Shown: piece by piece, positions 1,070 to 57,097 of the stretch
Layout of the letters: the number at the start of each line of letters is the position of its first letter
How positions within the stretch are numbered: the stretch's first letter is position 1
Virus record (IMG/VR): IMGVR_UViG_3300022927_000015
Span: 1-64,000 of that record
Source of the DNA: a virus
Direction: 5' to 3' (one strand)
Length of the DNA stretch: 64,000 nucleotides
Made by a program: the position numbers and the translations under genes
Notes under the pieces: model-generated
What the model was told of the DNA's origin: nothing
Databases searched by the model: none
The model's input: only the letters and a program-made list of their open reading frames with translations

Positions 1070-3268
1070 TTAACCTGATTGTGATGTCCCGTCGCTAAAT
1101 ACTAATGTAGCCACGATTTGATCAATTCTTACAGCCGGGTTTACTATTTGTATTTCTACATAAAATCCTTCATACGCGTTACTACCACCAAATGTACCTG
1201 TAATAGTATTACTTGGGGTGGTTCCTGTTCTACACTGTGCAGAACCATTCACAGCATCTACGCTAAGTGGTATTGCACCAGCAGGATCATCTGAATAATT
1301 TCCACTATTAAATGCAGCACCATGTAATGAATGAGGAACTGCACTATGACCAACATTAGTTGAAACTGGCGCAGCGGCTTTTCTTATATAGATTCTAATA
1401 TTTTCATTTACTAAATCATTATACGCATTACCGCTTGCAAAAGAACCAGTAAAGGCTAACTCAAAACTTGCTATAACTTTAAGAGGTTGGGTAGTAGTTT
1501 CAAATAATCTGTGATAAGTTGCAGTATCAGTATATCCTGAGTAATTTGGATTTGCCCCACCTTCGTCAGGCTGATATGCAGTTAGGTTATTGATAATTGT
1601 TGCATATGCTGGACTATTTCCATTATCAGCAAAGAATTTATCAGCTCTTATCAGATTACTTCCTACTACACATGCATCATCAAACGGACTAAGTGAGCCT
1701 GTCTGATTTGATATTCCACTACCTAATGCAGGTACTGAATTCCATGTAGTATATGATGAAGATCCTCTTGTTAACCTAAACTCCTCATCATCAAATCTTT
1801 CTCTTAAAGAATTTGAATTACCTGTTGTACTATAAGTATCTACCAGGATAGCATAAGGGCTACTTGAATCTGTTGGGCCAGTGCCCCAAGGATCATATAC
1901 ATTAGCAGTTGCAGTTGCATCAGTATTACGGAATCTCCAATTACTTGAAGTTATAGCCCAATCATTATAATCATAATTAACGTTCTGTACATTATACTGA
2001 TTAGTCCAATTTACCATTGTCCCAACAGAAGGATTCCATGCCTCTAATTGTAAAGTAGGTAATCCCCAATCAGTACCAATTGTTCTAAAGTTCCATAATG
2101 CTGCATTAGCACGACCCTGTGTATTTGCATTAAAGTTATCTATGTCAGTTACATCAAGTAAAAACTTAGACCCAGCTACATAGTATTCTACCCCACTCAA
2201 GTGTTTACTTATAACGCTACCTGCTTTTTCAACAACAGTTATGTTACCATTAATTGCAGGGGTACTTAAGTTAGTATCAAAGAATACATCAGATTGTGTA
2301 TATGAATGAGTACCTCCGCCATCGGTTGCAGTATCAGTTATCATAGAAGCAAATACATGGTATCTTCCACCATCTCTTCCATTACTGGCCAAGATATCTC
2401 CGGCTATAACCGTTATATCAACCTCAGCCTTCCACTTGGATGTATCTGCTGCATAATTTGAAATTTGAACAGTTATATCGCCACTTAGGCTAGTAAAGGT
2501 CTGGTTCTGATATAATGCATTAACAGTAGACGTATCAAATGTCTCTAGTACATTTACTCCATCAGCATCATATACTGTTACTATAATTTTGGCATCTCCA
2601 CTGGCATCTCCACTAAAGCCTGTTACCTGTTGGGCCGTTGAAAATAATATAGACCCGTTTCCTGAAGTATATGCAGGTTGGTTAGTTCCTGCCCAGCCGT
2701 TTGTTGCAAAAGGTGTACCTTCTGTGGTAGGTGAACTAATTCTAACAATTCTCTCTGTTATATTATCAGTCACAGTACCGTTTGTTGTACCATCGGTCTT
2801 ATTAAAGTGAGATGCAAAGGTTGGAGTAGGAATATAAACATTTACCTTCCCTGGTGTACCACTGTCTTCAGCTAATACATCATCTCCTATAAAGTTAATA
2901 GTTTTATATGTACCTACTGCAATACCTTCATCTTGAACATGAACACCGGCAAACGTTAGTTCATTACTTCCATTAATAATTATATTGGTTTGTGAATTAT
3001 CTAAGTTAATTGATACTTGATCATTGGATCCTATAGTTGTAATATCAATACCAGGACCTGCAATAACAGGAGATCCACCACCGCCACCGGTTGAAGATAT
3101 TGTTAAAGTATCACCGCTTGGAGTAGTAACCTTTGTAATAGTAACATTGGATCCGGCAACAAGTGTAGGGTTATACGCAGAGTCTATGAAGTCTTTTAAT
3201 GACGCTTGTGTCATTAAATCTCCAGCCTCAAAAAGTGCCTCTAATTGATATTTTGGTATTACAGCCAT
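1070..3268 (-). CDS. Putative virion structural/fibre-associated protein (732 aa, Gly/Thr/Ser/Asn-rich)
   Basis: Long ORF with beta-rich composition, repeated AGSNVTI/AGPGIDI motifs, adjacent to the collagen gene. Confidence 0.6.
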   Translation of the reverse strand: MAVIPKYQLEALFEAGDLMTQASLKDFIDSAYNPTLVAGSNVTITKVTTPSGDTLTISSTGGGGGSPVIAGPGIDITTIGSNDQVSINLDNSQTNIIINGSNELTFAGVHVQDEGIAVGTYKTINFIGDDVLAEDSGTPGKVNVYIPTPTFASHFNKTDGTTNGTVTDNITERIVRISSPTTEGTPFATNGWAGTNQPAYTSGNGSILFSTAQQVTGFSGDASGDAKIIVTVYDADGVNVLETFDTSTVNALYQNQTFTSLSGDITVQISNYAADTSKWKAEVDITVIAGDILASNGRDGGRYHVFASMITDTATDGGGTHSYTQSDVFFDTNLSTPAINGNITVVEKAGSVISKHLSGVEYYVAGSKFLLDVTDIDNFNANTQGRANAALWNFRTIGTDWGLPTLQLEAWNPSVGTMVNWTNQYNVQNVNYDYNDWAITSSNWRFRNTDATATANVYDPWGTGPTDSSSPYAILVDTYSTTGNSNSLRERFDDEEFRLTRGSSSYTTWNSVPALGSGISNQTGSLSPFDDACVVGSNLIRADKFFADNGNSPAYATIINNLTAYQPDEGGANPNYSGYTDTATYHRLFETTTQPLKVIASFELAFTGSFASGNAYNDLVNENIRIYIRKAAAPVSTNVGHSAVPHSLHGAAFNSGNYSDDPAGAIPLSVDAVNGSAQCRTGTTPSNTITGTFGGSNAYEGFYVEIQIVNPAVRIDQIVATLVFSDGTSQSG

Positions 3269-3279
3269 TTATACCTTAT

Positions 3280-3657
3280 TTATTTTGTTTGAAGAAGATC
3301 CATAAACTTATCAAAGGATAAAAGTAATACTTTCTTCTTCTTTTTCTTTTTTCCTGTTGGGATATCGCCACTACCGACGGTTTGGCTTGCAAAAGAATCC
3401 ATAGAACCAGGATTTCCAGGAAGCTCAACAGCTCCCATACCTTGTACATTCATATTAGGATTTACTGTTACTGCATCCTCGTCTACTTTATCAGGTAAAC
3501 CTTCTTCTTTGGTTTCTGCATAGTCTTTTAAATCTTTCTCTGGTAATTTAGAAAGATCTTTAACTTCATCAGAAACTTCAGATGCAGCAAGCTCCCCACG
3601 TTTAAATTGGAGAGCCAGAGCAAATAGTCTTCTTTGTGCTTTACTTTGTGCCGGCAT
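3280..3657 (-). CDS. DUF3008-like small protein
   Basis: MPAQSKAQRRLFALAL..KRGE...EKDLKDYAETKEEGLPDKV resembles the DUF3008 pattern (MPAKSKAQ...KRGE...FAST K.KGLP). Confidence 0.7.
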   Translation of the reverse strand: MPAQSKAQRRLFALALQFKRGELAASEVSDEVKDLSKLPEKDLKDYAETKEEGLPDKVDEDAVTVNPNMNVQGMGAVELPGNPGSMDSFASQTVGSGDIPTGKKKKKKKVLLLSFDKFMDLLQTK

Positions 3658-4787
3658 TATCTTAAATTTTTCTTAAGCCATTTGGCTACATATTTTTCTA
3701 ACTCTTTATATGCACGAGGTACATCTTCATACTCGGTAGCAGGGCCATTTTTCCAGTCTTCCCAAGCAGCTTTAATACCATTAAGAGGTTCATCAATTTG
3801 CATTAGTTCAATATACTCTTCATTCAATTCCACACTTTCCTCGATGTTAGCATGTTCGTTTAGAGATTTTAAATTTTCCATCTTTTTACTTTCTTTTACT
3901 GGTTGTAGAATATCTTGTAAAGTTTTATAAAAACTATGTATACTCTTTGGTGTCATTTTCTTAAATGTCTTTTCATCATCTATCTTAAGGGCATTACGAA
4001 CTTTGGATGCTGATATGTTATCATCAGTTCTAAAGATTTCGTATCCACTAAAATCTGGATCTACTCCTAACTGCTCTCTATAAGAATCTTTATTGATCAT
4101 TGAATCATACGCATTCTTTCGGTCAGTTCCATAACCCCACATAACCGGTTCATAAGTTGGCCTAGCAGCAGCAAAGAGAGTATCAATTGCGCCATTAGGA
4201 ACCACGATTGCAGTTTCTAGGAAGGGATACTGTTTAGCCATTTTAGCAAACATAGCCTGCTGTAAAGTTTCATCAAAAGGTCTCTTTTCAGGATCTGGGT
4301 TTTTACCTCTTACTAAAAATACAACTACAGGCAAACCGTTTTCCTTATACATTTTTTCAAATACTTTAACATGACCTAAGGTAAAAGGTTGGAATCTTCC
4401 TACAAACATGTTTACCTTTTTCATTCCAGGTTTTGGATGAGGTACCTTTAGTGCTTCATTTATAGTTTCAGTTTTTGTAGCCTTTCTAATTCTATGTCCA
4501 TAGGGAGAAAGTGAATATCTCTTAATACCGCTTTCATCTTCGCTAATATTAAAAAGACCTAAGTTTCTTTTAAGCCATTTCTTATGAGCTTGGATTTCTG
4601 CAAGAATTGTATTAACCTCATCCTCAGTTAAATGACCATCTGCAACCGCATCTAAAATAGCGTTGCGTACTCTTGCTGATGTTGATACATTTTTTGCTGG
4701 ATACTTTTCTGTATACCTTCTCTTAACCGTTACCTTCTTTTCTACTATGAAGTTATCTAATTTATTTAGATTTTTCATTATATGCAT
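3657..4787 (-). CDS. HxGH-class nucleotidyltransferase (cytidyltransferase/NMNAT-like) with N-terminal winged-helix-like domain; start may be 4778
   Basis: FVGRFQPFTLGH motif, GTDR and ISASKVR signatures; the N-terminal ~110 aa ends in YSLSPYG. Confidence 0.8.
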   Translation of the reverse strand: MHIMKNLNKLDNFIVEKKVTVKRRYTEKYPAKNVSTSARVRNAILDAVADGHLTEDEVNTILAEIQAHKKWLKRNLGLFNISEDESGIKRYSLSPYGHRIRKATKTETINEALKVPHPKPGMKKVNMFVGRFQPFTLGHVKVFEKMYKENGLPVVVFLVRGKNPDPEKRPFDETLQQAMFAKMAKQYPFLETAIVVPNGAIDTLFAAARPTYEPVMWGYGTDRKNAYDSMINKDSYREQLGVDPDFSGYEIFRTDDNISASKVRNALKIDDEKTFKKMTPKSIHSFYKTLQDILQPVKESKKMENLKSLNEHANIEESVELNEEYIELMQIDEPLNGIKAAWEDWKNGPATEYEDVPRAYKELEKYVAKWLKKNLR

Positions 4788-4797
4788 ATTTTTTTAT

Positions 4798-7700
4798 TTA
4801 TTTATCATTTACAAACCTTGTTGGTACAGGATTAGAAGGTCGGCCGTCACAACTCCAAGATCCTGCAGAAAATGCAAAATTTAATCTAGCGAGCTTATTT
4901 ACCCCATCTGTTCTATTAACATCAAGACCTTTAGTTTTAGTGTATTTGTATTGTTCATTAACAAACAGCTGTTCATTAACATTTTCATTATACACCGATG
5001 CATACATTTCACCTTGATTAAAATATGACTCCAATTTTTTCTTTAGATTTTCTCTATCTGATCCCTCGCACTTAGGCTTACTAAGAATATTTTCAACAGC
5101 AGAGTTAACTGATTGATCTCTTCTCTTTTTAAAGCCTTCATCATTTAAATCAAAATCATATTTTTCTGCAATTTCTTCGATTCTTTTTGCTGCTTTATCA
5201 ACATCACCGAACATAAGTTCATTATATACTTTATCTTTATCAGATAAATCTGATAAATCATTCTTTATTTCATCAGGACTAATCTTTTCACCTTTCTTAT
5301 TAGTAACTTCATTAAATGAAGATTGATCTGTTTTTACACCAGATGCTGATGCACCACCTGCACCTTTCTTAATAGACCTAGCCTCTACACCGTTATAGAT
5401 TAATTGCATCTTTCGCTGTATTTCTTCTGGTGAATCTTTTTCAAAATCTATTTTCTCGGGAGATATTGATATTATGTCACCTAGTGGATAGTTTGACTGA
5501 GCTGGCATATATACTTCATTACCTTTATTCAATTCACTCATATATGTTACCATTTCAGCAACATCTGCAGTTGCGCTATCAAAAAATGGATCGGCAAACA
5601 TTTCCTCGGTAAGTCTATGCAATTCCTTATCATATTCTTCAGGATCTTTAATATCTTTAAGATTCTTAAAATCATTTAAAATCTTAGTCTGTGATTTTGA
5701 TGGGGCATTTCCTGTCTTTTTAAATTGTTCCTCAAATCCTTCTACTATAGAATCCGCCGTAGCATTTTTTAGCTTATCTCTGTTTTCTGGTGATGAAGGT
5801 GGAGTATTAGGAACCGGTTCTATGATTGACATTTCACCTGACTTAAATGAGTTCATTGCAGAATCAATAATGTTATTTCTTCTCTCTAAAAACTTTTTTG
5901 CCAAATCAGCATCTTCTTTAGAACCATATACCTTTAATAGCTCATCATCTGAAGGTATTTTAGTTTTTTGTATTTTACCACCACCTATTTGAATGCCATC
6001 TTCTAATACTTCAGTTTTTACGTTTACAACTTTTTCTTCACCAAATATTTTAGCAGCTGTCATTTCCTTTCTGCCAATCTTTCCACCTTCAGGTGAGAAG
6101 TTTTCCAATCCAATTTCTTTCATTAAATTGGTTATTTCAGAAGGACTACCAGAACTTGGTACTAAAAGTTTTCTTGGAAGACCTGTTGCTGATGTGTTTA
6201 AATACATTTTTGTAGCCTTTGCAGTTACACTATTTCTTGCAATCAGCCCTGCATCATTTAATGCTTGTATTGCTTCAATCTTATCTTCTTTTGGTGCATT
6301 AGGATCATTAATAACATTTAATGTATCTAATACCTGTTCTGCATTTTCTTTTTTATCTGGATCTTTAATCTTTTCTATTTCATCACCTACTCTATTAGAT
6401 AATTTAGATATCTTTTCACTTGCACCTTCTTGTGGCTGTTCGTCTGCCTCCTTATCTTCTTTACCTTTAGGCTCTACTATTTCATGCTTTTTAGGGTCTG
6501 GATTTTTAACTTCGTACTCATCTCCAGTTTTCTTATTTCTTACTAAGGTTTTGCCATCTTCCTCTACAATAACTCTACCTAAATTGATAAACGAATTGTA
6601 ATTAAGTACCTTTTCCTCAACTATCATTTCTTCAGCTGTTGGTAAAAGAGATTCATTGGTTGACTTAATCTTTAAATAATCATCAAAAGTCTTAAACGAA
6701 TCATCGTCATTTGGTTGTATGACATCAATTACTTTATCTACCATTTGGTTAAAATCATTAATGACAGATGGTGTCATAATGTTTCCTCCGTTTTTTCTTT
6801 TCTTTTTTAATGATCCTAACATTATCTTAAATAGATCTTTAAGTTGTGGATTTTCATTAAGTATATCTTTAGTTCTTTGACTTGGTATTAATTCTACATT
6901 AAGATCAAATTCATCACCTTTTGCAAACTCGGCTTTTTCAATATCAATCTTTGTAATATCCTTACCTCTCTTAGTTACATAGTCATTAAAAATATTTGAC
7001 ACCATTTCAATGTATCTCATATCTTCAGTATCTCCTAAGATCTCATGTTTCTTAATTCCTCTTTCTTCAATAAATGCTAAAAGATCCAATAAGATAATTT
7101 CATTAATATCAGCGGGTGCCTTTCTTAAATCAATAGGTTCCTTATCTTTCATAAGGTTAACTGTATAAGGGTCTATTAGCTTAGCTGCAACGTTTTGTCT
7201 AGTCCCGGCCTTATAGAACTTAAATATTATTGATTCAATTGGTTTCTTTAAATCGTGTTGTAAAGTAGTAGATTGGATAGAAGGATTTAAAATTCTTAAA
7301 AGATATTCTGCAAATGAATTAGTATTAAAGATTTCTGCATGATCCTCTTTAGGTGTATTTAAGAACTCTTTGATTTTTTGTTTCTGATCATCTGTTAGAT
7401 AACCTTTAAATAGAGGCAATAGTGGAGTAACACCTAATGCATTTGACCAGTCATTAATAACTCTAGGATCTTCAATAACTTTCATAACATTACCGCTAGG
7501 TGCCATAACCTTAATATGAGTAAGAACCAGATGATTCTTAGGCATTCTATCATATGTTATTACACTGGGTTGATTATTAACAAAATATTGAAAACAGAAT
7601 TTCCAGTTTTCAGGTATACTATTAAAGTTTTTAGAAACTACCGATTTAATGTAACTGATGGGTTTTTCATAATAGACCATAAGTGTCCTATCAATTAGGT

Positions 7701-7866
7701 TAATAGGTCTTTGGTTTCCACCTTTATAGAATTCCACGCCATCACCCTTTCGTTGAAAAGAAAAAGAAGATCCGGATAATTTTTCTGTTACTACAAGGTA
7801 GTCCTTAAAAAGATCATCTATAAGTTGCTTTCCTGAATCTTTATAAATCTGAGTTAACTCTTTCAT
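4798..7866 (-). CDS. Multidomain protein: degenerate RNA-ligase-like nucleotidyltransferase N-domain plus C-terminal possible PD-(D/E)xK-like domain
   Basis: VVTEKLSG (motif I-like), LGVTPLLPLFKG, PIESIIFK (motif IV-like), AAKLID; C-terminal YPLGDII...SIKKG. Confidence 0.5.
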   Translation of the reverse strand: MKELTQIYKDSGKQLIDDLFKDYLVVTEKLSGSSFSFQRKGDGVEFYKGGNQRPINLIDRTLMVYYEKPISYIKSVVSKNFNSIPENWKFCFQYFVNNQPSVITYDRMPKNHLVLTHIKVMAPSGNVMKVIEDPRVINDWSNALGVTPLLPLFKGYLTDDQKQKIKEFLNTPKEDHAEIFNTNSFAEYLLRILNPSIQSTTLQHDLKKPIESIIFKFYKAGTRQNVAAKLIDPYTVNLMKDKEPIDLRKAPADINEIILLDLLAFIEERGIKKHEILGDTEDMRYIEMVSNIFNDYVTKRGKDITKIDIEKAEFAKGDEFDLNVELIPSQRTKDILNENPQLKDLFKIMLGSLKKKRKNGGNIMTPSVINDFNQMVDKVIDVIQPNDDDSFKTFDDYLKIKSTNESLLPTAEEMIVEEKVLNYNSFINLGRVIVEEDGKTLVRNKKTGDEYEVKNPDPKKHEIVEPKGKEDKEADEQPQEGASEKISKLSNRVGDEIEKIKDPDKKENAEQVLDTLNVINDPNAPKEDKIEAIQALNDAGLIARNSVTAKATKMYLNTSATGLPRKLLVPSSGSPSEITNLMKEIGLENFSPEGGKIGRKEMTAAKIFGEEKVVNVKTEVLEDGIQIGGGKIQKTKIPSDDELLKVYGSKEDADLAKKFLERRNNIIDSAMNSFKSGEMSIIEPVPNTPPSSPENRDKLKNATADSIVEGFEEQFKKTGNAPSKSQTKILNDFKNLKDIKDPEEYDKELHRLTEEMFADPFFDSATADVAEMVTYMSELNKGNEVYMPAQSNYPLGDIISISPEKIDFEKDSPEEIQRKMQLIYNGVEARSIKKGAGGASASGVKTDQSSFNEVTNKKGEKISPDEIKNDLSDLSDKDKVYNELMFGDVDKAAKRIEEIAEKYDFDLNDEGFKKRRDQSVNSAVENILSKPKCEGSDRENLKKKLESYFNQGEMYASVYNENVNEQLFVNEQYKYTKTKGLDVNRTDGVNKLARLNFAFSAGSWSCDGRPSNPVPTRFVNDK

Positions 7867-7918
7867 TTGCTTATTTTTGATTATCAGTTTATATATTCTT
7901 TAGATTATAACCATATAG

Positions 7919-7946
7919 AAAAAGGGCGGTTATGTAGTCGCCCTTT
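7919..7946 (-). terminator. Rho-independent terminator
   Basis: The minus strand reads AAAGGGCG-ACTACATAAC-CGCCCTTT-TT: a GC-rich stem followed by a U-tract, downstream of 8033..9304. Confidence 0.75.
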
Positions 7947-8032
7947 ATCATACTTTATAGCAGTTAGAGTATATACCCAAAACTCAAATGTTGGCTCCCT
8001 CTAGAGGTAAGCAATATAAGAATCCAGTCTAT

Positions 8033-9304
8033 CTATCTTCCGTACTTAATAATACCTAATAATTGATTAAGTGGAGCAAAAGCACCAGTTAATTTATATA
8101 GCTTTCCGTTATATCTAAAGACAATACCTTCGCTTGGATAAATTGAATCAAGGCCACCGATTCGGTCAAGTTTAGCCAATTGGTCTTCAACCTTTTTAAT
8201 TTGATCAACACCGCCACCTTTTCTAATTTTAGTAGTTTCAGTATCAAGATAAGCTCTTAATCTTTGTGCTTCATCAGATGGGTTTGCCGCAACAAAATTA
8301 CTTGCATTCCTAATAATAGTAGCACCAAGCTCCAGGAATAGATCTTCAAAAGGTCTAATGTTTTCTTTATACTTTTTCTTAACATCTTCTTTATCATACT
8401 TCTTAACTAATGCAGCTTCATCTTTTCCGATTTGCTTTTCAAGAGATCTCATATTTAAGCTTTTCTTATCGCCGTACGCCCATCTCCGTAAAAGCCCTTC
8501 CTTAACATCTTGTGAAAGGTTAGGAAAGTCTGCATCAATCAATTCTCTCCACCACATTTCATGGTAACGAGAAACTTCATCACCGTCATTTAAACCATAA
8601 CGATTTTGTAATGCAATAACTTTATCTTCAAACCTTTTCTTATTAGCGCTAAAATCAACATCTCTTTGTAGTTGAAGTATTCTAGGTGGAATAATCTTAA
8701 ATGTTTTACCTATATCAGATTTTACTTTGGCTAAGATTTGTGGAATTTCTTTAGCAGGTCTACTATCCGTATCTAAGATATTCCCATCACCATCTGTTTT
8801 TGTAATATTATGAAATTGAATAACATCAGTATCATAGTTAATTACATTAGGATTTTTAGAATAGATAAGCTCCATATTCATAAAGTTCTTACCATTATCA
8901 AAAATCTCTTCTTGTTTTGGTTTAGGCAATTTAACTAAAAGACTAGCAAGATCTTTAGCAGCAAAAGTAAATGTATCTCTTACCATAGGAACATCATGAG
9001 ATTCAAACTTTGATACGAATTGACTAAGACTCATAGGATCTTTTGTATCACCTGTATTTCTGGCAAACATAACATTACCATCTTTCATAGTAACAAATAA
9101 GTTTTGCCCATCGGTCTTTTCAATAGGATCCTCTTCAAAGTTCAATTCCCCGCGAAGTCCTGCATCAACGATCTTTTTAAAGTCACCGAAGGTTAATCCT
9201 TTATCATCATACGGATGGCTCATATGACCAGCTGCTCCGCCTTCAAAAAGAAATGGCTGGCTTTTATCGGCCAGCCATTCTTCAAACAATTTAATATGTT
9301 TCAT
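8033..9304 (-). CDS. ATP-dependent ligase-fold nucleotidyltransferase (DUF6267-like phage protein)
   Basis: EGGAAGHMSHPYD N-terminus, EKTDG (motif I), MNMELI, SEGIVF (motif IV), LYKLTG (motif V). Confidence 0.7.
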   Translation of the reverse strand: MKHIKLFEEWLADKSQPFLFEGGAAGHMSHPYDDKGLTFGDFKKIVDAGLRGELNFEEDPIEKTDGQNLFVTMKDGNVMFARNTGDTKDPMSLSQFVSKFESHDVPMVRDTFTFAAKDLASLLVKLPKPKQEEIFDNGKNFMNMELIYSKNPNVINYDTDVIQFHNITKTDGDGNILDTDSRPAKEIPQILAKVKSDIGKTFKIIPPRILQLQRDVDFSANKKRFEDKVIALQNRYGLNDGDEVSRYHEMWWRELIDADFPNLSQDVKEGLLRRWAYGDKKSLNMRSLEKQIGKDEAALVKKYDKEDVKKKYKENIRPFEDLFLELGATIIRNASNFVAANPSDEAQRLRAYLDTETTKIRKGGGVDQIKKVEDQLAKLDRIGGLDSIYPSEGIVFRYNGKLYKLTGAFAPLNQLLGIIKYGR

Positions 9305-9318
9305 GTAATTAGTTTATG

Positions 9319-10716
9319 TTATCCCATTGAAGATTGTAACGCCCCAACCATAGCACCGTAATCTCCGCTATACTTAGATTTTAAACCGTCAATAACTTCT
9401 TTTGCTTTGGCTTCATCAAAATCATCGCCGTGAGCATTTTTTAGAATTTCAGTTGCATATTCTTCAAATTCCTTATCAGACTTAATTTCTTTTTCTGATA
9501 CTTTAGCTTCTTCAACAGTTTCCTCTTCTTCAGCTTCTACTTCTTCTTCTTCCTTTACAACAACAGTACCTTGTACATCGGCTTCATCTTTTGCAGTTTC
9601 TGGTGCAGTGGTAATGTTTTGGTCTTTAGTAACCAATTCTTCACCCTTTGAATCAGGCTCTTCTTCAGGCTTACCCATATCCATAATATCACCTGCAATA
9701 CCTGCGGCTGATTCAGGACCGTCACCTTTTGCAACCTTAATCACAATGCCGTTTTGATCAGCCGTTTCATCTTTTAATTCAGGACCGTTATCAACTTCTT
9801 CAGTAACCTCATCTTCATCAGATTCTTCTACCTCTTCGTCTTCTTTAGAACCGTATGCTTCATTAACAAATTTAGAGAAAGACATAATTCTTGATTCGTC
9901 TTTCTTGTGATGCATATCCTCATCCTCTAATTCGTCTTCTTCTTCCTTATCATCAGCAGCATCTTTTTTCAAATCTTCTATATGAGCATAGTCATCTTTT
10001 GCTGCGTCTTTATCATGTTCAATTTCTTCTTCTTCATCTTCTTCAGCTAACGGATCAGCAGAAGCAGCAATAGGAGCAGCGTAATCTTCTGGCTCCTCAT
10101 CATCATCATGATACTTAACATTCTTATTAACAGTAACTTCCTTTTCTTTAATGAAATCTTCAAATGCCATTATTCTACGAGTAGCAGCAGGAGTATCTTC
10201 TTCCTCTTCTACATCAATACCTGATTCTTCGTCATCACCTTCAGCAGGTACTTCATCAGTAACAGGTTGATCATCAGTAACATTTTCACCGGCTTCATCT
10301 TCAACGTCTTTAGGTTCTCCTATTGCATTTACTTCATCCTCGATGTCTTCAGCAGTATCTTCTTCAACTTCATCCTCTTCGGCAACTTCGCCGGTTCCAC
10401 CTACTTCTTTATCTTCTTCTTTTTCGCCTTCTTCGCCTTCTAATGATTTAGGTTCGCCTTTGGCTTTGCTTTCATCTTCAATATCCTCTGCTCTATCTTC
10501 TTCAATTTCATCTTCAGATATATCTTGCTTTGGAGTAAAGTCTTTTAGTAATGCTTCTAATTTAGACAAAAGATTCTTTTCTTTCTTTAATTCTTCGACA
10601 CTTTCGTAACCCATCTTTTTAACAAGATCCATTACGGCGTCTTGATTGACTTTAGCAGATTCATTAAGCGAATCAGTTGCCGTAGCAATCGTTGAAAACT
10701 TTTTGATTGGTTTCAT
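9319..10716 (-). CDS. Highly acidic protein, putative prohead core/internal head protein
   Basis: Extremely D/E-rich 465 aa with internal duplications (EDEIEEDRAEDIEDE..GEPK / EDEVEEDTAEDIEDE..GEPK) and CTS-like motifs. Confidence 0.5.
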   Translation of the reverse strand: MKPIKKFSTIATATDSLNESAKVNQDAVMDLVKKMGYESVEELKKEKNLLSKLEALLKDFTPKQDISEDEIEEDRAEDIEDESKAKGEPKSLEGEEGEKEEDKEVGGTGEVAEEDEVEEDTAEDIEDEVNAIGEPKDVEDEAGENVTDDQPVTDEVPAEGDDEESGIDVEEEEDTPAATRRIMAFEDFIKEKEVTVNKNVKYHDDDEEPEDYAAPIAASADPLAEEDEEEEIEHDKDAAKDDYAHIEDLKKDAADDKEEEDELEDEDMHHKKDESRIMSFSKFVNEAYGSKEDEEVEESDEDEVTEEVDNGPELKDETADQNGIVIKVAKGDGPESAAGIAGDIMDMGKPEEEPDSKGEELVTKDQNITTAPETAKDEADVQGTVVVKEEEEVEAEEEETVEEAKVSEKEIKSDKEFEEYATEILKNAHGDDFDEAKAKEVIDGLKSKYSGDYGAMVGALQSSMG

Positions 10717-10780
10717 GTTAATTTATCTTTTTTTGATTCTTTTTTTATATATCCATGTCCCATGTGAAAGATATTCTATA

Positions 10781-12283
10781 TTAGAATCTAACATTCTGAA
10801 CTTCAAATGGGAATTTTTCTTCTTTATATATTTTTCGGCGTTCCATACCATGACGATAAATGTAATTCATCCAATCATGGTCATCAGCTTTATATCTAAA
10901 GTCATCAATAAAATCATAAATCTTAACAGTATCTTTAGATGCATGCTTTCTTAATCCACGACCAATTGACTGTCTGATAATGACTTCAGATTTAAATGAC
11001 TCGGTAAAAAATATGTTATGTATGTTTTTAATAGAAATACCTGTAGAGAATGTTCCGTATGAAGCTACAATAATAACATCATCATTCTTTTCCATTCTGC
11101 TTTTAAACTCTTCTCTAAAATCAGACTTTACTGAACCATCTACATAATAGACCTTTTTATCGGTTATAGTTCTAAGCTTTTGATATATCTTTTCACCGTA
11201 TGCTATTTTATGGAATAGCACTAATGAGTTGGATGTTGACTTTTTAATTACTTGGCAAATAAAGTCTAATCTTTTTTCACTTTCATTAATAAAGTTCTGT
11301 TCTAGACTAAACAGTTTTTGTCTATCATAAGGGTTTTTAGATAGAGATGAAAATGCTTCCTTTTGCGCATCGGTTGCATATTCCATGTGGATTTGTAGTA
11401 CTTTACATTTTGCAATATAACCTTCATCTTGTAAATGAGCGGCTTTTACTTGAGTAACTAAAGGGCCCATTGCTGACATTAAACTTAGCCTATTAACAGT
11501 TCCTCTTTTAGGAATAGTTCCACTAAGACCAAATCTATAATCACAATGCCAGCACATATCCATAATCTTTTGGATTGAATTTGCTTTGGCTTTATGAGTC
11601 TCATCTACAAAGACCGCATCAAATTGGCTAAAGTATTCTTCATCCTTTTTGGTCAATGACTGATATGTACCAATTACAACATTAGAACTTTTTCGTATCT
11701 TAACGCCTGCGTATATCTGTTGAATCTTAATAGGTACCCTACCTTTATTGTATTCTTCAAAATCACCAGTTGCCTGTACAACCAAACTAACATTAGGCAC
11801 AATCATTAAGATTTTCTTTTTACCTAACTGTTCCATCATGTAAGCAACAACCATAAAAGAGATAAGGGTTTTACCTGCAGATGTAGCTAATTCAGCAAGG
11901 CATCTTCTATACTTAAGAATTTTTAACGCGGCATCAATTTGATAGTCTCGTGGTTTAATATCAGAGTTCTTAAAAAAGTCATCAACCCATTCCCTAAAGA
12001 CATCCTCAGTAATAGAAGTATCAAAGATATCAGTTATTCCATTTAAGGTAAACTGGTAATCATATTCTTTACAAATATCAATAACTTCTTTCCATAAACC
12101 TGCAGGAATTTTATTTCTTTTTATGAATGAGATATTTCCATCCCAAACTTTCTTTTTGACTAATGGGTGGAATCTCCATCCTTCAATCTTCTTTGTAAGA
12201 CTAGATTTTAACTGCTCATATTCCATCTCGGTACATGAGTCAATTACTAAAAACTTTTTATTTTCTGATAACGAAAGTTCCAT
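10781..12283 (-). CDS. uvsW: UvsW-like SF2 DNA helicase
   Basis: PRDYQ, ATSAGKT, DETH, GLSGT, SYGTFSTGISIKNIHN, QSIGRGLR. Confidence 0.93.
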   Translation of the reverse strand: MELSLSENKKFLVIDSCTEMEYEQLKSSLTKKIEGWRFHPLVKKKVWDGNISFIKRNKIPAGLWKEVIDICKEYDYQFTLNGITDIFDTSITEDVFREWVDDFFKNSDIKPRDYQIDAALKILKYRRCLAELATSAGKTLISFMVVAYMMEQLGKKKILMIVPNVSLVVQATGDFEEYNKGRVPIKIQQIYAGVKIRKSSNVVIGTYQSLTKKDEEYFSQFDAVFVDETHKAKANSIQKIMDMCWHCDYRFGLSGTIPKRGTVNRLSLMSAMGPLVTQVKAAHLQDEGYIAKCKVLQIHMEYATDAQKEAFSSLSKNPYDRQKLFSLEQNFINESEKRLDFICQVIKKSTSNSLVLFHKIAYGEKIYQKLRTITDKKVYYVDGSVKSDFREEFKSRMEKNDDVIIVASYGTFSTGISIKNIHNIFFTESFKSEVIIRQSIGRGLRKHASKDTVKIYDFIDDFRYKADDHDWMNYIYRHGMERRKIYKEEKFPFEVQNVRF

Positions 12284-12732
12284 TAAAATTCTTTATCATC
12301 TAAGCTAATACGATTCCTAATAGCAAAGGCCATATTATCCAGCGTTTTGATACATTCATAGTAATAATCAATATGAGATTGTAACATGTCTATTTGGGTC
12401 CTAAGCGAGGCTAAGTCTGCTTTAATGAATTGATTTTTTTCACCGTTGGTTAGCTTAATATCATAGTTAACAGAATATTCTCTATACTGTGATTTGTAAT
12501 ACTTATCCCAAGTAGCGTTTCTTTTATATATTGTTGTCTTAAAATCAGTAACCTTATCTAAGAGTATCTGTCTATAAGATAGCATTCTTACTTGGCATTC
12601 TGATAATTCGTTCATGTTTTTAAGCTTACTTACAAGATCTTTGATCTTTTCTTTCCAATCTTCACGATCTTTAGTTAGTCTTTGTTCTAACTGTTCGTTA
12701 GCTTCTTTAATTTGTGTATCGTCAAATGCCAT
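12283..12732 (-). CDS. uvsY: UvsY-like recombination mediator
   Basis: Helical 149 aa ending ...IKTLDNMAFAIRNRI; adjacent to uvsW as in T4-like phages. Confidence 0.7.
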   Translation of the reverse strand: MAFDDTQIKEANEQLEQRLTKDREDWKEKIKDLVSKLKNMNELSECQVRMLSYRQILLDKVTDFKTTIYKRNATWDKYYKSQYREYSVNYDIKLTNGEKNQFIKADLASLRTQIDMLQSHIDYYYECIKTLDNMAFAIRNRISLDDKEF

Positions 12733-12947
12733 TAAAATATACCTTTATCGTTGTTAGTCTTTTTATAATTCTTAATCTTAGGTTGAAACTTTTTCTTAGG
12801 CTCAGGTAATGTAAAGCTAGTATCAAATGAATCTACTTTCATCTTACCAAATTTAGTAAAGAGTTTAAGTTTCTTTTTTGAAGTTTCAAAGTCTTTGTAA
12901 AAATCATCAAATTGTTCAGTCACAAATTCATTATAATTTTTTATCAT
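12732..12947 (-). CDS. Small hypothetical protein with CTS-like N-terminus
   Basis: 71 aa ORF overlapping both neighbours by 1-4 nt; begins MIKNYNEFVTE. Confidence 0.6.
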   Translation of the reverse strand: MIKNYNEFVTEQFDDFYKDFETSKKKLKLFTKFGKMKVDSFDTSFTLPEPKKKFQPKIKNYKKTNNDKGIF

Positions 12948-16943: not shown

Positions 16944-17294
16944 TTAAAGTCTCTTACCAAGAACCGCACCTAATGCAGCTCCTACTAATCGACTGGTTAG
17001 AAGATCATATAGAGCACCCTTCTCAATTCCTAATACTTTAGCAATTGCTTTACCTACCGCCTTTCCTAAAGCAAAACCAGTAAGACCACCTAATACTGAA
17101 CCTAAGATACCCTCATTAACAACTTCTTCCATTACTTCTTCAAGATCACGACCACTTTCATGTTCTTTCATTATGCGATCAACCGCTTCATCGATTGCAG
17201 CTTCCTGCTCGTGGGTTAATGATTCGTTTAACAAAGCCTCAATATCTACTGAGTCATTATGGTTTTCGGTAAGGTAATCTTTAAATGTTTTCAT
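16944..17294 (-). CDS. Small protein with CTS-like N-terminus and C-terminal glycine-zipper hydrophobic helices
   Basis: MKTFKDYLTE...; GILGSVLGGLTGFALGKAVG...LVGAALGAVLG. Confidence 0.7.
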   Translation of the reverse strand: MKTFKDYLTENHNDSVDIEALLNESLTHEQEAAIDEAVDRIMKEHESGRDLEEVMEEVVNEGILGSVLGGLTGFALGKAVGKAIAKVLGIEKGALYDLLTSRLVGAALGAVLGKRL

Positions 17295-17320
17295 TGTACT
17301 CTATTTCCTTTGTTTATATA

Positions 17321-17875
17321 TTAGGTAAGATTAACTGCTATATTAAGTATGTTATATGTGAAGTTAATATCAAAGGTTTGGAATTCTACTGTATTGCTTG
17401 AAAAGTTTAAATCTAATGCACTTACACCGGTCATTATCATATCTTTTAGCTGAACGGTAACAAAAATATTTCCTTCGCCGTCTAACATTTGCAAACCTAC
17501 ACCTTCTGGTACGAACGGATCTTTACCTGATAGCTTATAGTAATAGTCAAAAGTTTCAACAGCCATCCAATAATTTATCCACCCATCAAATGCTTGCATG
17601 GTAACAGTTAAAGTTTTATCAAATAGCTCTTGTGTAGGTAAGCTACTTCTAAAGCTCCTAGTATTACCTGGGAAGTCATTTTGTGTAACAGGATCAAAAG
17701 ATGGGCCTGGTAAATTCATTGACTGTATTCCGTAATTAAAATAGTCAATAGGTTCCTTTATAAGACCACCAGGTATCCTATTTAGATAAGGCCTATACTT
17801 ATTTGAAATTTCCTTTGGAATAAAAGTTCTAGGAAACTCAAACCTAAATTGATTATTTCTTGCGCTTAATATCAT
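17321..17875 (-). CDS. Tail tube-fold protein (gp3 tail terminator / gp19-like)
   Basis: IQSMNLPG, FDKTLTVT, LDLNFS...FDINFTY pattern typical of the tube fold. Confidence 0.55.
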   Translation of the reverse strand: MILSARNNQFRFEFPRTFIPKEISNKYRPYLNRIPGGLIKEPIDYFNYGIQSMNLPGPSFDPVTQNDFPGNTRSFRSSLPTQELFDKTLTVTMQAFDGWINYWMAVETFDYYYKLSGKDPFVPEGVGLQMLDGEGNIFVTVQLKDMIMTGVSALDLNFSSNTVEFQTFDINFTYNILNIAVNLT

Positions 17876-24020: not shown

Positions 24021-27000
24021 TTATTTTTTAACTATAGTTATACTAAACCCAAATGATTCAGTAAACCCTGTCCTTTTGTTATATATTAGGCTCAGATCAA
24101 ATAGGTTGGTATTAAGTAGCTTTGATCCAACCGCCGTGTTAATAGTTAATCCGCTGGCTGCCTTTTCCGAATTTGTTAATGCAGCAGTTGAATAATTTAA
24201 CGGTAGATTTTCTCTAGTACTCTTAACGTAAAAATCAACATTTGCTATTTTGTATAATTGTAAGATATTTTGTCTAATGTATCTTTCAACATCATCATCT
24301 AAAGTTTCAATATCTGCATAACTAAATTCAGGCTTAATATACTTTTTAAACTGTTCTTTAATAGGTCCAAAGAGATACTCAATTAGTCTCTTCTGAATAA
24401 ACATATAGAACTTAACATAAGTATCATTTTCCTCTGTCATAAAGTTACCTTCTATAAGAGACGGTTGTTTAATAGCATCTTTAATAAATTCCTCAGAATG
24501 TATAAAAGTTTCAAGTTCAATTTGTTGTGGGACCTTTAAATACTTAGAACCAAAGAATGATTTTCTTTCAGTCATTGCTCTTGTACCAATAACTGATTGT
24601 ATTTGGGATTTATCAATACTCTTTCTAAAATATGCAGGTTCCCAGTTTGAAGAGAATGTATAAAAATCTCTACTAAAAATACCTACTTCATTAATAAGTG
24701 GATATAAACTTAAGTATGCGCTATCAGTAGAAAGCTCTAATACTGTTGAAGGATCTTCCTCATTAACTTTATGATAAAAAAGATTTCTAATTTGTCCAAA
24801 CCTTTCAGTGTCGCTACTATTGAATTGTGTGTTTGCATATCTACACAACTCCATAACTTTATACTTGTAAACTTCATCAGGTATTGGACCACCTGTACTA
24901 CCCGTTCCAGTACTACCCGTTCCAGTGCTACCTGTTCCAGTAGATGTATCAAAGTCAATATTAATATAAGGGTCTCTAAAGAAGAATATATCTAACGAAG
25001 TTGGCTCATAATAACCGGCATGTCTACCAATAGGTGTAACTCTAGGTTTAGTTTGTAATGATAAGTCATATCCAATAATATCAGTCAAGTTAAACACTGT
25101 AGGTTTGGCAGGATCCGGTAAGACACCAATGTATACAGATTTAATAATATCTTCTTGTGCTCTAAGTTCAATAGAAAATGTTTGTGCTAAATCTCCATTA
25201 TTATCTAGGATCCTATTACCTTCTTTATCAATAGTTTCATAGACAATATTAGGTGCACCTTGATTAACATTTTTAAAAATAGAAGCAAAGCCAACATCGG
25301 TTAATCTAGACGTATATGCATTAAAACCGCCGCCGACCGTAAAGTAACTTGATTCTAATAACTCCAACGAACTAGGGGTTGGGCCACCAGGTATATAAGG
25401 GGACCCGTTAAGAGTAATGGTTGTAGCAAAAAACTGTGAATCAGAAACAACCCTCTGTATTCCACTAATCTCATATATGTCGGATCCAATTTCAAATTTT
25501 ATTGGATTAAATTGTCCATCACTACCTATTGTAATATCACGCAAAAATCTAGGAGGTATACCATTTACATCAACCACACCCTGTACAAGATAGGCTTGTA
25601 CCGTAGGATTAAATGAAGTAGCTAAAAAGCTTATTGCACCCTGTACGATACCACGCTCATATAAATATCCTTGTCCTGATACCTGGATAGGTTGGCAGTC
25701 TTGTGTTTGATAATCACTTTCAAATGAATACAAAACCGTTCTATCAATACTCTGTGAACCCTTATTAACACACTTGTTTTCTAGTGTAAGAAAGATTAAC
25801 ATTACAACAGTTTTCCACTTATCATTCTTGATAAATTTAATTTGTGTCTCAGGCTTATCAGGTGCATTTGGTATAAGCATTACCGAAAACCTATAATCAT
25901 TAAATCTACCATCATTAACATATGATAATGATTTTGCATTAAAGTTAGGTTTCTTGTTTATATCTGCTTTTGGTTTTGCAATTATTCTAACACCTCTTAA
26001 AAAAGCTTCAGCAAAATTCTTTTCATCGCCTCCACTAAATCTCCCATATCTAAGTTGCTTATCTATTAAGTTTATCTGACCGCCGGTAGTAAACTTATCA
26101 ACTATAAAGTAATCATTAAAGTAATCCTTGTCAATTTTCTGGAATGTACCTGGTGAATATACTGAACCTGTGAAAGGATTTTCTTCAGTAGAATCTACTG
26201 GTGCATTATCTATATAACTCCATGAACTCTTAATGGCTTCATTATCAAAATAATCAGGAAACTCACATAAGTAATACCATTCATGTGTGAAGCCTAGTGG
26301 ATCTTGCCCTATAGAATATTTTGACGGCGCAAAATTATTTTGCCCGAATGCTTCGCTTAAGTTTAAACTATACGGAAGATTTCTAACATTCTTACCGTCA
26401 TTTAAGTATGACCATTTGTTTATGTAAGGGATTACTCTAGATGCAACGGCCTGTTGTTTTAAATAGTTTTCTTCAAGCCTATCATACTCAGAATTAATAA
26501 TAGAATCAAAAGATTGATCTGGATCTGAGTCTTTTAGCAATCCTATAAGTGTAGCAAAGCCACCATCATCATAATAAAACTCTCTAATTTCAGGATTACT
26601 TCGCCCAAATAAGCTATTTTTGTAGTAGTATTCTTCATAAGATAGCTCACCCATTTGGCTAAACATTGTGCTATAGAAATCATAGTCAAAATCTCTTATA
26701 GGAAATATTGAAAATCTACCAAACGAAGGTCTATAATCAGAATACAGTGCAACTTGACCACTTCGCGTAGTTTCAATTTGATTATCGTTAAGAGTTATAA
26801 TTACATTCGTGTCAATATTATTATAACCAATAATTTTACCACTACTGTTTTTTATCGGCTCCTCTAAATAAGGCACCCAATCACCTATCTGGGCAAATCC
26901 ATCTTTAGACTGAACATAGTTACCTTTTACGAACCGATCCTGATCTCCTGCTGTAACTTTAAGTAAAGAACCGGTTACGTCATTTCCACCTACAAAGTTT

Positions 27001-43407: not shown

Positions 43408-43446
43408 TTTATCCTGATTTGTTTATATATTCCAAACCAGGATAAA
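43408..43446 (-). promoter_or_regulatory. 14-bp RNA hairpin abutting the amidoligase start; its 11-nt loop is exactly the promoter motif GAATATATAAA
   Basis: Arms UUUAUCCUGGUUUG / CAAAUCAGGAUAAA (one G-U); loop at 43422..43432. Confidence 0.7.
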
Positions 43447-45006: not shown

Positions 45007-45031
45007 AATGTATTGTTTATCAGTTTATATA

Positions 45032-45949
45032 TTAGTCAGTAGTATTCTTCTTGCTATATGCAGGTTCAGGTGACGGTACCATGGGAGGACTAGTTGGAGC
45101 ACCTAAATTACCAACGTGAGTATGACTATCAACCCAAGCTCTAAAAGTATCACCTTTAATAACAGACTCGGCAGCGGCTTCACCTAACTTGATTCTAGGT
45201 GAATTAACATGTGTTTCACCAGACGCATTAATCTTAGCATCAATACAATTAACAACAGTATTCGTATCTGCATTAATTACAGTATCTGCTCCACTATTAA
45301 TTGTAAATTGAGCTGAATGTGTAAATGTAATATTACCGTCATTAAGCATTACGATAGAGTCACCGTTTGCATTAATAATCTCAACCGAGTTATCGGGTTT
45401 AATGTTAACTGTAGTTGGACCTTCTGTGGTTGTATAATCCATCATCAGTCCCTTTTCCTCAGTAAAGAAAACCTTTATATGTTCACCTTCTCTTTCATTT
45501 GTTACCTCAGGGTTCCCAGATTGTAGGTCAGCAGTTAAACCAAATGCTGTATCATATATTAATACATGGGAGTTAGGATAAGCGGCCTCTATCTCCGCCT
45601 TCGTCTCATCAGAAGGGTATAGGGACTCATGATACACGGGTGAATAGTAATTACCGTTATCAAAAGTTACCCTTAATATGGTGCCGAGTTTAGGTACCGA
45701 AAATGTACCACTTCCTGAATTACTTCCACCTGAAGATGCAACTGATGGCCTAGCCCACGGCAAAGAAGCAGTTGGCATAATGTAAGCGCTCTGTGGATCT
45801 TCTGGGTCTTGGCGTTGATCCATTTTACCGAAGACTCTAATCTTAATCCTCCCTTCAAATAGATCATCGTTAGTATCCTCAACGATACCAACCCAATTGC
45901 TCCCTTTAAGATTATCAGCTTTTAAATCCCTTGTGGTTAATTTACCCAT
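45032..45949 (-). CDS. gp5: Baseplate central spike (gp5/VgrG OB-fold), no lysozyme domain
   Basis: WVGIVEDTNDDLFEGRIKIRVFG, LPWARP, FSVPKLG; beta-helix repeats; C-terminal HTH (His-x-His) metal motif. Confidence 0.85.
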   Translation of the reverse strand: MGKLTTRDLKADNLKGSNWVGIVEDTNDDLFEGRIKIRVFGKMDQRQDPEDPQSAYIMPTASLPWARPSVASSGGSNSGSGTFSVPKLGTILRVTFDNGNYYSPVYHESLYPSDETKAEIEAAYPNSHVLIYDTAFGLTADLQSGNPEVTNEREGEHIKVFFTEEKGLMMDYTTTEGPTTVNIKPDNSVEIINANGDSIVMLNDGNITFTHSAQFTINSGADTVINADTNTVVNCIDAKINASGETHVNSPRIKLGEAAAESVIKGDTFRAWVDSHTHVGNLGAPTSPPMVPSPEPAYSKKNTTD

Positions 45950-56200: not shown

Positions 56201-57097
56201 TTGGACACCAGTAGCCCCAAACCCGGTAGCTCCAACTGGCCCAGTAGCACCAGCTGGTCCTTGTGGCCCAGTGGCACCAGTATCTCCAGTTAACCCAGCT
56301 GCAGCAGGTGATATGTTTATCCAATTACTTCCATTCCATTGTAAGATATCGGAATTTGATGGTGAAGGTGCATTAACATTAGAAAGCATACTTATAGTAG
56401 GAGATCCACTGTTAAGGTTAGCTAAATCTACTTCACTTTCATCAAAATTATAAACTACATTATTATTAACCCCATCTAAATTAGCGGTTAGCGGAGTTCC
56501 TGTTGTATTAGTAGCAGTTAATCCTCTAAAAGTTAGTGTAGTGCCGGACATACCAGCAAAAAGATTATTACCACCAACCCCAATATTAGTACCTTGGTTA
56601 ACTTCACCGCTTGCACCTGTGTTTATAAGCTTTATAGAGTTTGTCGTGGTATCATATTGTAAACTCATACCAGGACCTGCAATTAATCTAAATGTGTCAT
56701 TAGGTGTTGTTGAAAAAAGAGTCCCATCATCGGTTGTTTGAAAAGACCCTGTTGCTCCAGTATAGTTAAGTACAACTTTACCAAACCCTGGGCTAGCTCC
56801 TACTGTAATATCTCCGGATCCAATACCTCCAATGATATCCCATTCATTTTGATCAAATACACCTCTCGTGGTTCTCTTATTAGCTCTCCACCAAACTAAA
56901 GCTTCTGATGATACACTTGTACCGCCAGTAGGTTCAATGACCTCTACTGGGTGATATACAATATGACCTTCTTCATAAGTTCTATCGTCAACCCACGGGT
57001 TTGCTACTGCTTTAAAATTATCATCCACTTCTCCGTTAAAAAGTTCTCTTTTAACTTCTGTTCTATAGATGATATATTCTTTTAAATTGAATGCCAT
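53228..57097 (-). CDS. Collagen-like fibre protein with several Gly-X-Y tracts separated by globular domains
   Basis: [12 protein letters not shown] tracts; internal C1q/TNF-like (BclA-C-like) module GVYQISAAY...[12 protein letters not shown]. Confidence 0.85.
54290..54800 (-). repeat. Collagen tandem repeats including GETGPQGPQ x4, near-identical to 1..385
   Basis: ggtccagtttcacc(c/t)tgtggtcc(c/t)tgt units visible. Confidence 0.9.

Follow-up and report, generated by a model that had tools for sequence, protein, structure and literature searches.

Two predicted RNA-ligase-fold enzymes and a HIGH-superfamily nucleotidyltransferase form a conserved, possibly head-delivered module in T4-like phages

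A cluster of five genes at positions 3280-10716 of a 64-kb stretch of viral DNA (hereafter the window; positions 1-64,000 of IMG/VR record IMGVR_UViG_3300022927_000015) encodes two predicted RNA-ligase-fold enzymes, g4 and g3, and a HIGH-superfamily nucleotidyltransferase, g2, that recur together in related phages in a single order and are repeatedly fused to one another. The module is best read as a kit for joining or healing nucleic-acid ends, a variant of the known RNA-ligase systems that is possibly delivered from the phage head. The source is an uncultured marine giant relative of phage T4, and the window is part of a 72,312-base record estimated to be 26% complete. An earlier interpretation made from the letters alone (the sequence-only reading) had proposed that all five genes constitute one pre-packaged nucleotidyl-transfer system. 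As it had described, the five open reading frames (ORFs) share an orientation, all lying on the minus strand, and the ligase and HxGH motifs it quoted are present in the translations of g2, g3 and g4. The genes and their parts, from high to low coordinates, are:

10781-12283: UvsW-type helicase gene, upstream of g5 (ResIII, E 4e-27; UvsW_N, E 2e-6)
9319-10716, minus strand: g5, a very acidic protein of 465 residues with an N-terminus like that of T4 internal protein IPI; the last ~60 residues alone are conserved
8033-9304, minus strand: g4, 423 residues, an RNA-ligase-fold enzyme by its predicted fold and invariant motifs
4798-7866, minus strand: g3, 1022 residues, an Rnl2-like N-terminal domain (N-domain) with a long C-terminal extension
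6667-7866, minus strand: g3 N-domain, residues 1-400, a predicted Rnl2-like RNA-ligase fold and then a helical region
4798-6666, minus strand: g3 C-terminal extension, residues 401-1022, lineage-specific, without a family match
3657-4787, minus strand: g2, 376 residues, a HIGH-superfamily nucleotidyltransferase with flanking modules
4473-4787, minus strand: g2 N-terminal module, residues 1-105, conserved as a unit of its own
3798-4472, minus strand: g2 core, residues 106-330, the predicted HIGH-superfamily nucleotidyltransferase with GRFQPFTLGH and ISASKVR
3657-3797, minus strand: g2 C-terminal tail, residues 331-376, starting with the tag-like motif MENLKSLNE...
3280-3657, minus strand: g1, 125 residues, a DUF3008 protein (PF11450)

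Predicted folds of g4, g3 and g2

The sequence of g4 has no match in Pfam, PHROGs, NCBIfam or the Protein Data Bank (PDB), and we turned to its predicted structure. An AlphaFold2 model built from a 50-sequence alignment had a predicted local distance difference test score (pLDDT) of 90.1 and a predicted template modelling score of 0.86, residues 1-30 alone being uncertain (pLDDT 55-60). The first 42 matches listed by Foldseek were all ligases, with Trl1 (E 2.1e-3) and T4 Rnl1 (E 4.4e-3) the best. With VIA-align, in which Z scores of 7-8 are frequent by chance among unrelated models, the first 49 matches listed were ligases or capping enzymes and RNA ligases stood at the top (Z 8.1-9.5), led by Naegleria NgrRnl (6vt3; Z 9.5, 184 residues, root-mean-square deviation (rmsd) 3.7) and including Trl1-LIG (8.7), T4 Rnl1 (8.6), REL1 (8.3) and T4 Rnl2 (8.2); DNA ligases scored 5.0-7.5 and capping enzymes 5.1-5.5. 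Because such scores can arise by chance, the fold call rests on the uniformity of the match list together with the motifs, and because the top Z scores tie within 1, g4 is assignable to no ligase clade.

The motifs EKTDG, EGIVF and YKL lie at residues 62-66, 392-396 and 403-405 of g4, and E62, K63, D65, G66, R82, E145, Y157, E392, G393, K404, T406 and G407 were invariant in 50 of 50 sequences. Judged by their order and spacing, E145 probably represents motif III and K404 motif V. The protein thereby has what is expected of a covalent nucleotidyltransferase: the predicted fold, the KxDG lysine of motif I, the motif III acid, the EG of motif IV and the motif V lysine. It shares this fold (over 184-201 residues) and the same EKxDG lysine, motif III acid, motif IV EG and motif V lysine with NgrRnl (Rnl5), Trl1 and T4 Rnl1. 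Unlike these enzymes, g4 has no sequence-level match to any ligase family, and it carries a helical insert of ~165 residues (~residues 218-382) inside the fold, separating the motif III region from motif IV, whereas in the known enzymes an accessory domain is attached at the C- or N-terminus. Also peculiar to g4 are a near-invariant GGxxGHxxHP (45-47 of 50) upstream of motif I and its usual position as the C-terminal part of a HIGH nucleotidyltransferase fusion. The earlier claim that g4 is a ligase-fold protein was thus borne out by the AlphaFold2 model, the VIA-align matches and the invariant catalytic residues, and we regard g4 as a confident RNA-ligase-fold prediction in an unannotated family. 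A word-indexed search found 1585 relatives, and an exhaustive phmmer search of 1.84 billion representatives found 1860 clusters (50% identity) at E <= 1e-3, 574 of them at E <= 1e-30. A single-protein search of bacterial and archaeal genomes, whose reach was close relatives only and which does not imply confinement to viruses, found no close relative. Neither g4 and g1 nor the profiles A2 and A3 had an informative sequence match in the PDB; the best match of profile A2, ribosomal protein eS6 (E 0.02), was judged to be chance.

The N-domain of g3 (its first ~400 residues), for which 53 relatives were found in the length range searched, bears EKLSG at residues 28-32 and ESIIFK at 211-216. Its AlphaFold2 model (pLDDT 83) matched T4 Rnl2 in Foldseek with an E value of 7.3e-8, all 23 matches at E <= 1e-3 being ligases, and in VIA-align it reached Z 11.4 to T4 Rnl2 (1s68; 192 residues, rmsd 4.1), with DNA ligases at Z 7-9. 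The Pfam family RNA_ligase (PF09414) was matched by 6 of 30 members of the g3 family (E <= 0.01, best 2.7e-5); g3 itself gave no match to it at E <= 0.1. Across the same number of sequences E28, K29, D59, R60, Y66, E67 and K229 were invariant (30/30), with E or D at position 211, and K29 aligned with the motif I lysine of T4 Rnl2 (EKIHGTN), the alignment being weak (E 0.0065). The fold and the motif I, IV and V residues of a covalent nucleotidyltransferase are therefore found in g3, and we consider its N-domain a confident RNA-ligase-fold prediction of a divergent, Rnl2-like kind.

The closest known counterparts of this domain are T4 Rnl2 (gp24.1) and Trypanosoma REL1, together with the Pfam family PF09414. 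It shares with T4 Rnl2 the motif I pattern EK(L/I)xG(S/T), and g3 lies near uvsW, as does T4 rnlB. It differs in that the motif III glutamate is not conserved, in having one motif V lysine rather than two, and in the helical region that follows the fold; the domain is usually fused to a HIGH nucleotidyltransferase, for which g3 has a ~600-residue tail instead. That tail has no Pfam or PHROG match, and its ESM Atlas matches were all below 0.9 and to viral hypothetical proteins. The sequence-only reading had called g3 a degenerate ligase-fold paralog of g4. The ligase fold stood, the degeneracy did so in part (the lysine is invariant in 30/30), and the paralogy did not: BLASTP between the two gave E 2.2 and profile-profile comparison with hhalign aligned the nucleotidyltransferase parts alone, so the two ligase domains represent separate families. 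In the g3 N-domain relatives P0273, P0294 and P0295, another C-terminal partner takes the place of the nucleotidyltransferase; in P0273 this has a precomputed match to a PD-(D/E)XK nuclease family (PF12705). In phage T4 itself (2637-8441), rnlB is ~3 kb from uvsW, with hoc and inh (head protein) in between.

The third enzyme, g2, carries GRFQPFTLGH at residues 130-139 (TLGH at 136-139) and a second motif, ISASKVR. It matched CTP_transf_like (PF01467) with E 1e-6 and 29.4 bits against a cut-off of 21, as well as phrog_3041 and phrog_395, 'cytidyltransferase' (E 1.6e-16), and its earlier identification as an HxGH nucleotidyltransferase agrees with this family match and with both nucleotide-binding motifs. 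The best PDB match was an archaeal nicotinamide mononucleotide adenylyltransferase (NMNAT), 1f9a, with E 0.15, and the NMNAT models NF002243, TIGR01527 and NF003786 scored 27.1, 22.3 and 19.9 bits against cut-offs of 127, 181.2 and 397. Since this likeness is weak and the scores are far below the cut-offs, we did not file g2 as an NMNAT. It shares the HIGH signature GRFQPF(T/H)xGH and ISxSxxR with archaeal NMNAT, NadM and NadR; in contrast to them, it has no Nudix or ribosylnicotinamide-kinase partner domain, and its constant partners are ligase folds.

Gene order and fusions in related phages

To place these genes in context, we fetched 80 viral loci with a g4 profile, 47 with a g4 of >= 49% identity and 33 others at ~40-44%, and scored their genes by tblastn. 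The 47 closer loci have a single order and orientation, UvsW, g4, g3 N-domain, nucleotidyltransferase, with UvsW present in 43, the g3 N-domain in 45 and the nucleotidyltransferase in 43; the misses are loci cut by contig ends. In most of the 47 the g3 N-domain and the nucleotidyltransferase abut as one gene, a fusion seen directly in LR756500 (653 residues) and in L013 (614 residues), and by Pfam 8 of 53 homologs have the g3-type domain and the nucleotidyltransferase in one protein. The more distant loci are joined differently: all 28 complete ORFs are nucleotidyltransferase-g4 fusions, the other 5 of the 33 being cut by contig ends, with the HIGH motif (GGFKPxTGAH or GRFQPMGxHH) at the start and the g4 domain at the end. 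The same fusion is found in Microcystis phage Mel-JY01, where it is annotated 'cytidylyltransferase like protein'; we found no paper on this phage, nor a proteome. The nucleotidyltransferase domains of both fusion types align with one another (hhalign E 3.9e-5).

A similar picture came from the best 150 g4 representatives, of which 131 exceed 450 residues; the HIGH motif is present in 96 of these 131, and the ligase domain sits at the extreme C-terminus in 128 of the 150. Among 33 long g4-family proteins, the other fused domains were P-loop kinases of the Zeta_toxin (4) and AAA_33 (3) families, DUF5661 (2) and, once each, an ADP-ribosyltransferase and the head of a poly(A)/CCA polymerase; because kinases and a CCA-adding enzyme are among these partners, the module points to RNA ends. 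DUF6267 was absent from the Pfam matches of these 33 proteins and of 30 g3-family members. The conservation in relatives that the sequence-only reading had offered as a check on itself is strong for g4, the g3 N-domain and the nucleotidyltransferase, and the recurrent fusions reinforce it. Judged by gene order and fusion, these three are one real conserved module of predicted enzymes.

The same comparison spoke against the idea that all five genes are one conserved system: in the 47 loci, the acidic body of g5 is found in 4, the g3 tail in 2 and DUF3008 in 18. By this distribution the acidic body and the g3 tail, both confined to the nearest relatives, and DUF3008 are variable companions outside the core. 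g5 is indeed as acidic as had been described, with 163 of 465 residues D or E (35%) and an isoelectric point of 4.05, and it has no match in Pfam, PHROGs or NCBIfam. Its acidic body recurs in 4 loci, and residues ~400-465 in 30 further loci, always just upstream of g4. The assignment of g1 to DUF3008 likewise held (PF11450, E 1.9e-7, 31.6 bits against a cut-off of 24, residues 3-58); g1 has no PDB relative, and where DUF3008 occurs it lies downstream of the module, as also in LR756500. The N-terminal module of g2 appears to be mobile: it occurs in 42 of 47 loci, and 39 of these have it downstream of the nucleotidyltransferase rather than in front of it.

Putative head-targeting tags and transcription signals

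We next considered the N-termini. T4 internal proteins IPII and IPIII start with MKTYQEFIAE and IPI with MKTFKEFTSTTTPVSTITE. T4 gp21, the prohead protease, cuts after (L/I)xE. The T4 leader targets proteins to the head core, according to the available text of PMC3012670, which describes the targeting sequence without printing it. g4 begins MKHIKLFEEWLAD..., in which the leader MKHIKLFEEWLADKSQPFLFE is followed by GG. All 119 close full-length homologs have this 21-residue leader, in each case with [LIVMF]xE immediately ahead of the GG; in the fused relatives, ..INES..LLxE before GG is often found at the border of the g4 domain. g5 starts with MKPIKKFSTIATATDSLNE, similar to the IPI leader, and has internal tag-like motifs at residues 185 and 280. 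Peptidase_S77, the gp21-type prohead protease, scored over its cut-off in 4 of 5 related records.

The claim that all five proteins have motifs resembling a capsid targeting sequence was too broad: N-termini like those of the T4 internal proteins are present in g4 and g5, the one in g2 is weaker, that of g1 is C-terminal only and that of g3 is internal (~residue 420), g3 having no N-terminal tag because its N-terminus belongs to the ligase fold. The pre-packaging proposed on that basis is plausible given the T4-like N-terminal tags and the protease in relatives; packaging itself, like the counter-defence role that the sequence-only reading attached to it, stays at the level of inference, and we put packaging forward tentatively, as somewhat short of an even prospect. 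The parallel is with T4 IPI, IPII, IPIII and Alt, with which g4, g5 and neighbouring small ORFs share leader-like N-termini ending in [L/I]xE, and whose type of protease is found in relatives of this phage. The difference is in the cargo, which here would be large enzymes and modular multi-part proteins.

Two small ORFs near the module, 12732-12947 (71 residues, MIKNYNEFVTEQ) and 16944-17294 (116 residues, MKTFKDYLTEN), have starts very like the T4 internal-protein leaders MKTYQEFIAE and MKTFKEFTS and are candidate internal head proteins. In nine loci (L011, L014, L018, L021, L022, L028, L034, L036 and L047) an extra small ORF that starts MKxxKLFE(E/Q)F(L/V)NE lies between g4 and g3, as if modules were gained and lost at the tag.

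Candidate transcription signals were found before and within the cluster:

10744-10752, minus strand: ATATATAAA, a promoter-like word 36 nt upstream of the start codon of g5
7888-7896, minus strand: ATATATAAA, a promoter-like word 30 nt upstream of the start codon of g3
7913-7953, minus strand: hairpin followed by U5, a predicted intrinsic terminator after g4 (-14.3 kcal/mol, z -4.45, 0 of 200 shuffles as stable)

The same word is present at 17313-17321, 43422-43430 and 45024-45032 (minus strand), before the ORF at 16944-17294 and two ORFs of the baseplate cluster, and it sits 21-36 nt upstream of all five start codons. It may be the late-promoter word of this lineage, and its placement would suggest that the module is co-expressed late with structural genes. 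The g4 terminator is kept in the 4 closest loci with different stem letters and the promoter-like word is kept there too; both are limited to these 4. A scan for sigma-70-type promoters gave fewer sites than in shuffled sequence.

Proposed function, alternatives and surroundings

Folds, conservation of catalytic residues, gene order and fusions were computed; the rest of the mechanism is inferred from them. Each ligase would form a lysyl-nucleoside monophosphate (at K63 of g4 and K29 of g3) and seal breaks with 5'-phosphate and 3'-OH ends, while the nucleotidyltransferase g2, working in the same pathway, would nucleotidylate a substrate that bears a phosphate. Late transcription from ATATATAAA-type promoters would supply the proteins, T4-style N-terminal tags would bring them into the prohead, and cleavage at [L/I]xE sites would trim them, g4 after LFE21 to leave GGAAGH...; injected along with the DNA, they would mend or modify RNA as soon as infection begins. 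We think it very probable that the ligase and nucleotidyltransferase folds are correctly predicted, and work on RNA or other nucleic-acid ends is mildly favoured. The combined reading, a conserved three-enzyme module for nucleic-acid ends (most likely RNA) that is expressed late, loaded into the head and injected, is in our judgement evenly balanced between right and wrong. A more specific version would have the nucleotidyltransferase and the ligase folds divide one chemistry between them: the former nucleotidylates the 5'-phosphate of RNA (or DNA) or makes a special donor, the latter, one of them partly degenerate, do the joining, and the whole kit is preloaded in the capsid, freed by the protease and injected. 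We offer this version as a speculation with a small chance of being right.

The same enzymes could instead repair or process RNA in the cytoplasm, as T4 Rnl1 and Rnl2 do, and never be packaged, the apparent tags being N-terminal helices or linkers typical of the lineage. The RNA ligases of T4 itself are not known to enter the head by way of a capsid targeting sequence; T4 rnlB is close to uvsW (~3 kb), so g3 may simply have inherited its place next to UvsW; the N-terminus of g3 is tagless and part of the fold; the strict tag motif is modestly enriched; and the window's own record shows no protease. We nevertheless consider this explanation rather unlikely, given that the g4 leader is kept throughout and always ends in [LIVMF]xE before GG (119/119), that its residues 1-30 have the low pLDDT (55-60) expected of a removable peptide, that adjacent small ORFs bear near-copies of the T4 internal-protein leader and that relatives encode a T4-type head protease. 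A role at the DNA level, in which the ligase folds seal nicks or join or cap the ends of the injected genome and the nucleotidyltransferase nucleotidylates a DNA end, strikes us as improbable. DNA ligases do appear in both fold lists (g4 Z 5.0-7.5, g3 Z 7-9), and injected enzymes would meet the incoming DNA first. However, RNA ligases rank above DNA ligases for both models, Pfam and fold comparison detected no OB or DNA-binding domain typical of DNA ligases, and the phage has a canonical ATP-dependent DNA ligase of its own, placed at 58818 in the sequence-only reading and found at 58818-60140 (phrog_114, E 1.3e-77).

The sequence-only reading had also raised regeneration of NAD+, with g2 as a true NMNAT that rebuilds NAD+ against Thoeris-, DSR- or SIR2-type depletion. 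In keeping with this, g2 carries GRFQPF..GH, its best weak matches are 1f9a (E 0.15) and the NMNAT models (E 2.7e-6 to 7.5e-5), and some sources automatically name its homologs NMNAT. It falls below every NMNAT cut-off, however (22-27 bits against 127-181), and NAD+ salvage has no use for the constant fusion to ligase-fold domains. In addition, a NadV-type partner (NAPRTase/NadV, PF04095) is missing from four of the five records, the partial ones G000-G003 (26-76% complete), and in LR756500 it is 220 kb from the module. The available text of PMC9503650 ties phage NadM to NadV, every NadM-bearing phage there also having NadV. These findings leave the NAD+ reading of g2 very improbable. Finally, one or both ligase folds could be catalytically dead, acting instead as scaffolds or binding modules for the nucleotidyltransferase or for head assembly, as the missing motif III glutamate of g3 and an asparagine in place of the lysine in the LR756500 copy might suggest. 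The lysines, like the residues of motifs IV and V, do not vary even among divergent members of the two families (g4 50/50, g3 30/30), which would not be expected of dead enzymes, and of the explanations considered here this one would surprise us most.

Several observations weigh against a packaged module of active RNA-end enzymes. The fold match of g4 is middling (Z 9.5; best Foldseek E 2.1e-3), and Foldseek gave no match at E <= 1e-3. In g3 the motif III glutamate is not conserved: at the candidate position 93, 21 of 30 sequences have Q, 7 have E, one has D and one Y, with no invariant glutamate nearby. The g3-type copy in LR756500 reads ENLDG, with asparagine replacing the motif I lysine; the g3 N-domain may therefore be catalytically weakened. 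As for packaging, the 55 ORFs of the window contain 9 instances of the strict tag motif where shuffled sequences contain 3.7 +/- 1.8, a modest enrichment, [L/I]xE is a short motif within Glu-rich proteins, and a search of the 72-kb record to which the window belongs, 26% complete, detected no prohead protease. The T4 late-promoter word TATAAATA was found 9 times against 13.8 expected and not upstream of the module genes. The 64-kb window has no transfer RNA (tRNA) or transfer-messenger RNA genes. Canonical RNA ligases are encoded elsewhere in the relatives LR756500 and G002, so plain tRNA repair may already be covered and the module is not the sole RNA-repair system.

Among described RNA-repair systems we found no counterpart to the pairing of g4 with a HIGH nucleotidyltransferase. 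In the available text of PMC5512222, PMC9503650 and PMC7824862, HIGH nucleotidyltransferases serve NAD+ or sugar-nucleotide synthesis only, and the partners of RNA ligases are only kinases, 2H, KptA and RlaP. The nearest parallel in architecture is with the polyvalent proteins of phages and conjugative elements, for which delivery with the DNA has been proposed (Iyer et al. 2017, PMC5512222); g4-family relatives are likewise multi-domain, reach 1985 residues and combine enzymes such as ADP-ribosyltransferases and kinases. The available text of PMC5512222 contains no HxGH protein or cytidylyltransferase, and its three mentions of 'ligase' describe no such combination. Our literature search found nothing on DUF3008 or on a phage RNA ligase-cytidylyltransferase fusion.

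The g4-type domain is one of the larger unannotated families of predicted enzymes in aquatic phages. Should the enzymes prove active, the RNA ligases would gain at least one clade, possibly with new substrate rules, and the enzymes would be useful as laboratory ligases as well as for understanding how phages counter RNA-cutting immunity. Packaging, if real, would widen the T4 internal-protein idea from small inhibitors to repair enzymes. Were the divided chemistry described above true, the phage would mend or re-cap nucleic acids before any gene expression of its own, and the ~1900 protein clusters, from aquatic phages, would represent an unknown class of virion-delivered machinery for RNA repair or modification.

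The rest of the 64-kb window has a T4-like layout, with a primase, baseplate proteins, tail fibres and the ATP-dependent DNA ligase. Related records reach 212 kb at 76% completeness, from which a whole genome of ~280 kb is extrapolated; none of 50,697 phage records matched the region by megablast. LR756500.1 (locus L003), a 462-kb phage, has a canonical Pfam RNA_ligase gene adjoining an AAA_33 kinase gene at 24570-26197, ~240 kb from its copy of the module, a classical repair pair. Downstream of g1 in the window are a 732-residue protein without a family match and a collagen-repeat protein. Long collagen-like Gly-X-Y tracts are found at 1-1029, in an ORF open at its 3' end, and at 53228-57097, in a tail-fibre protein of 1289 residues.

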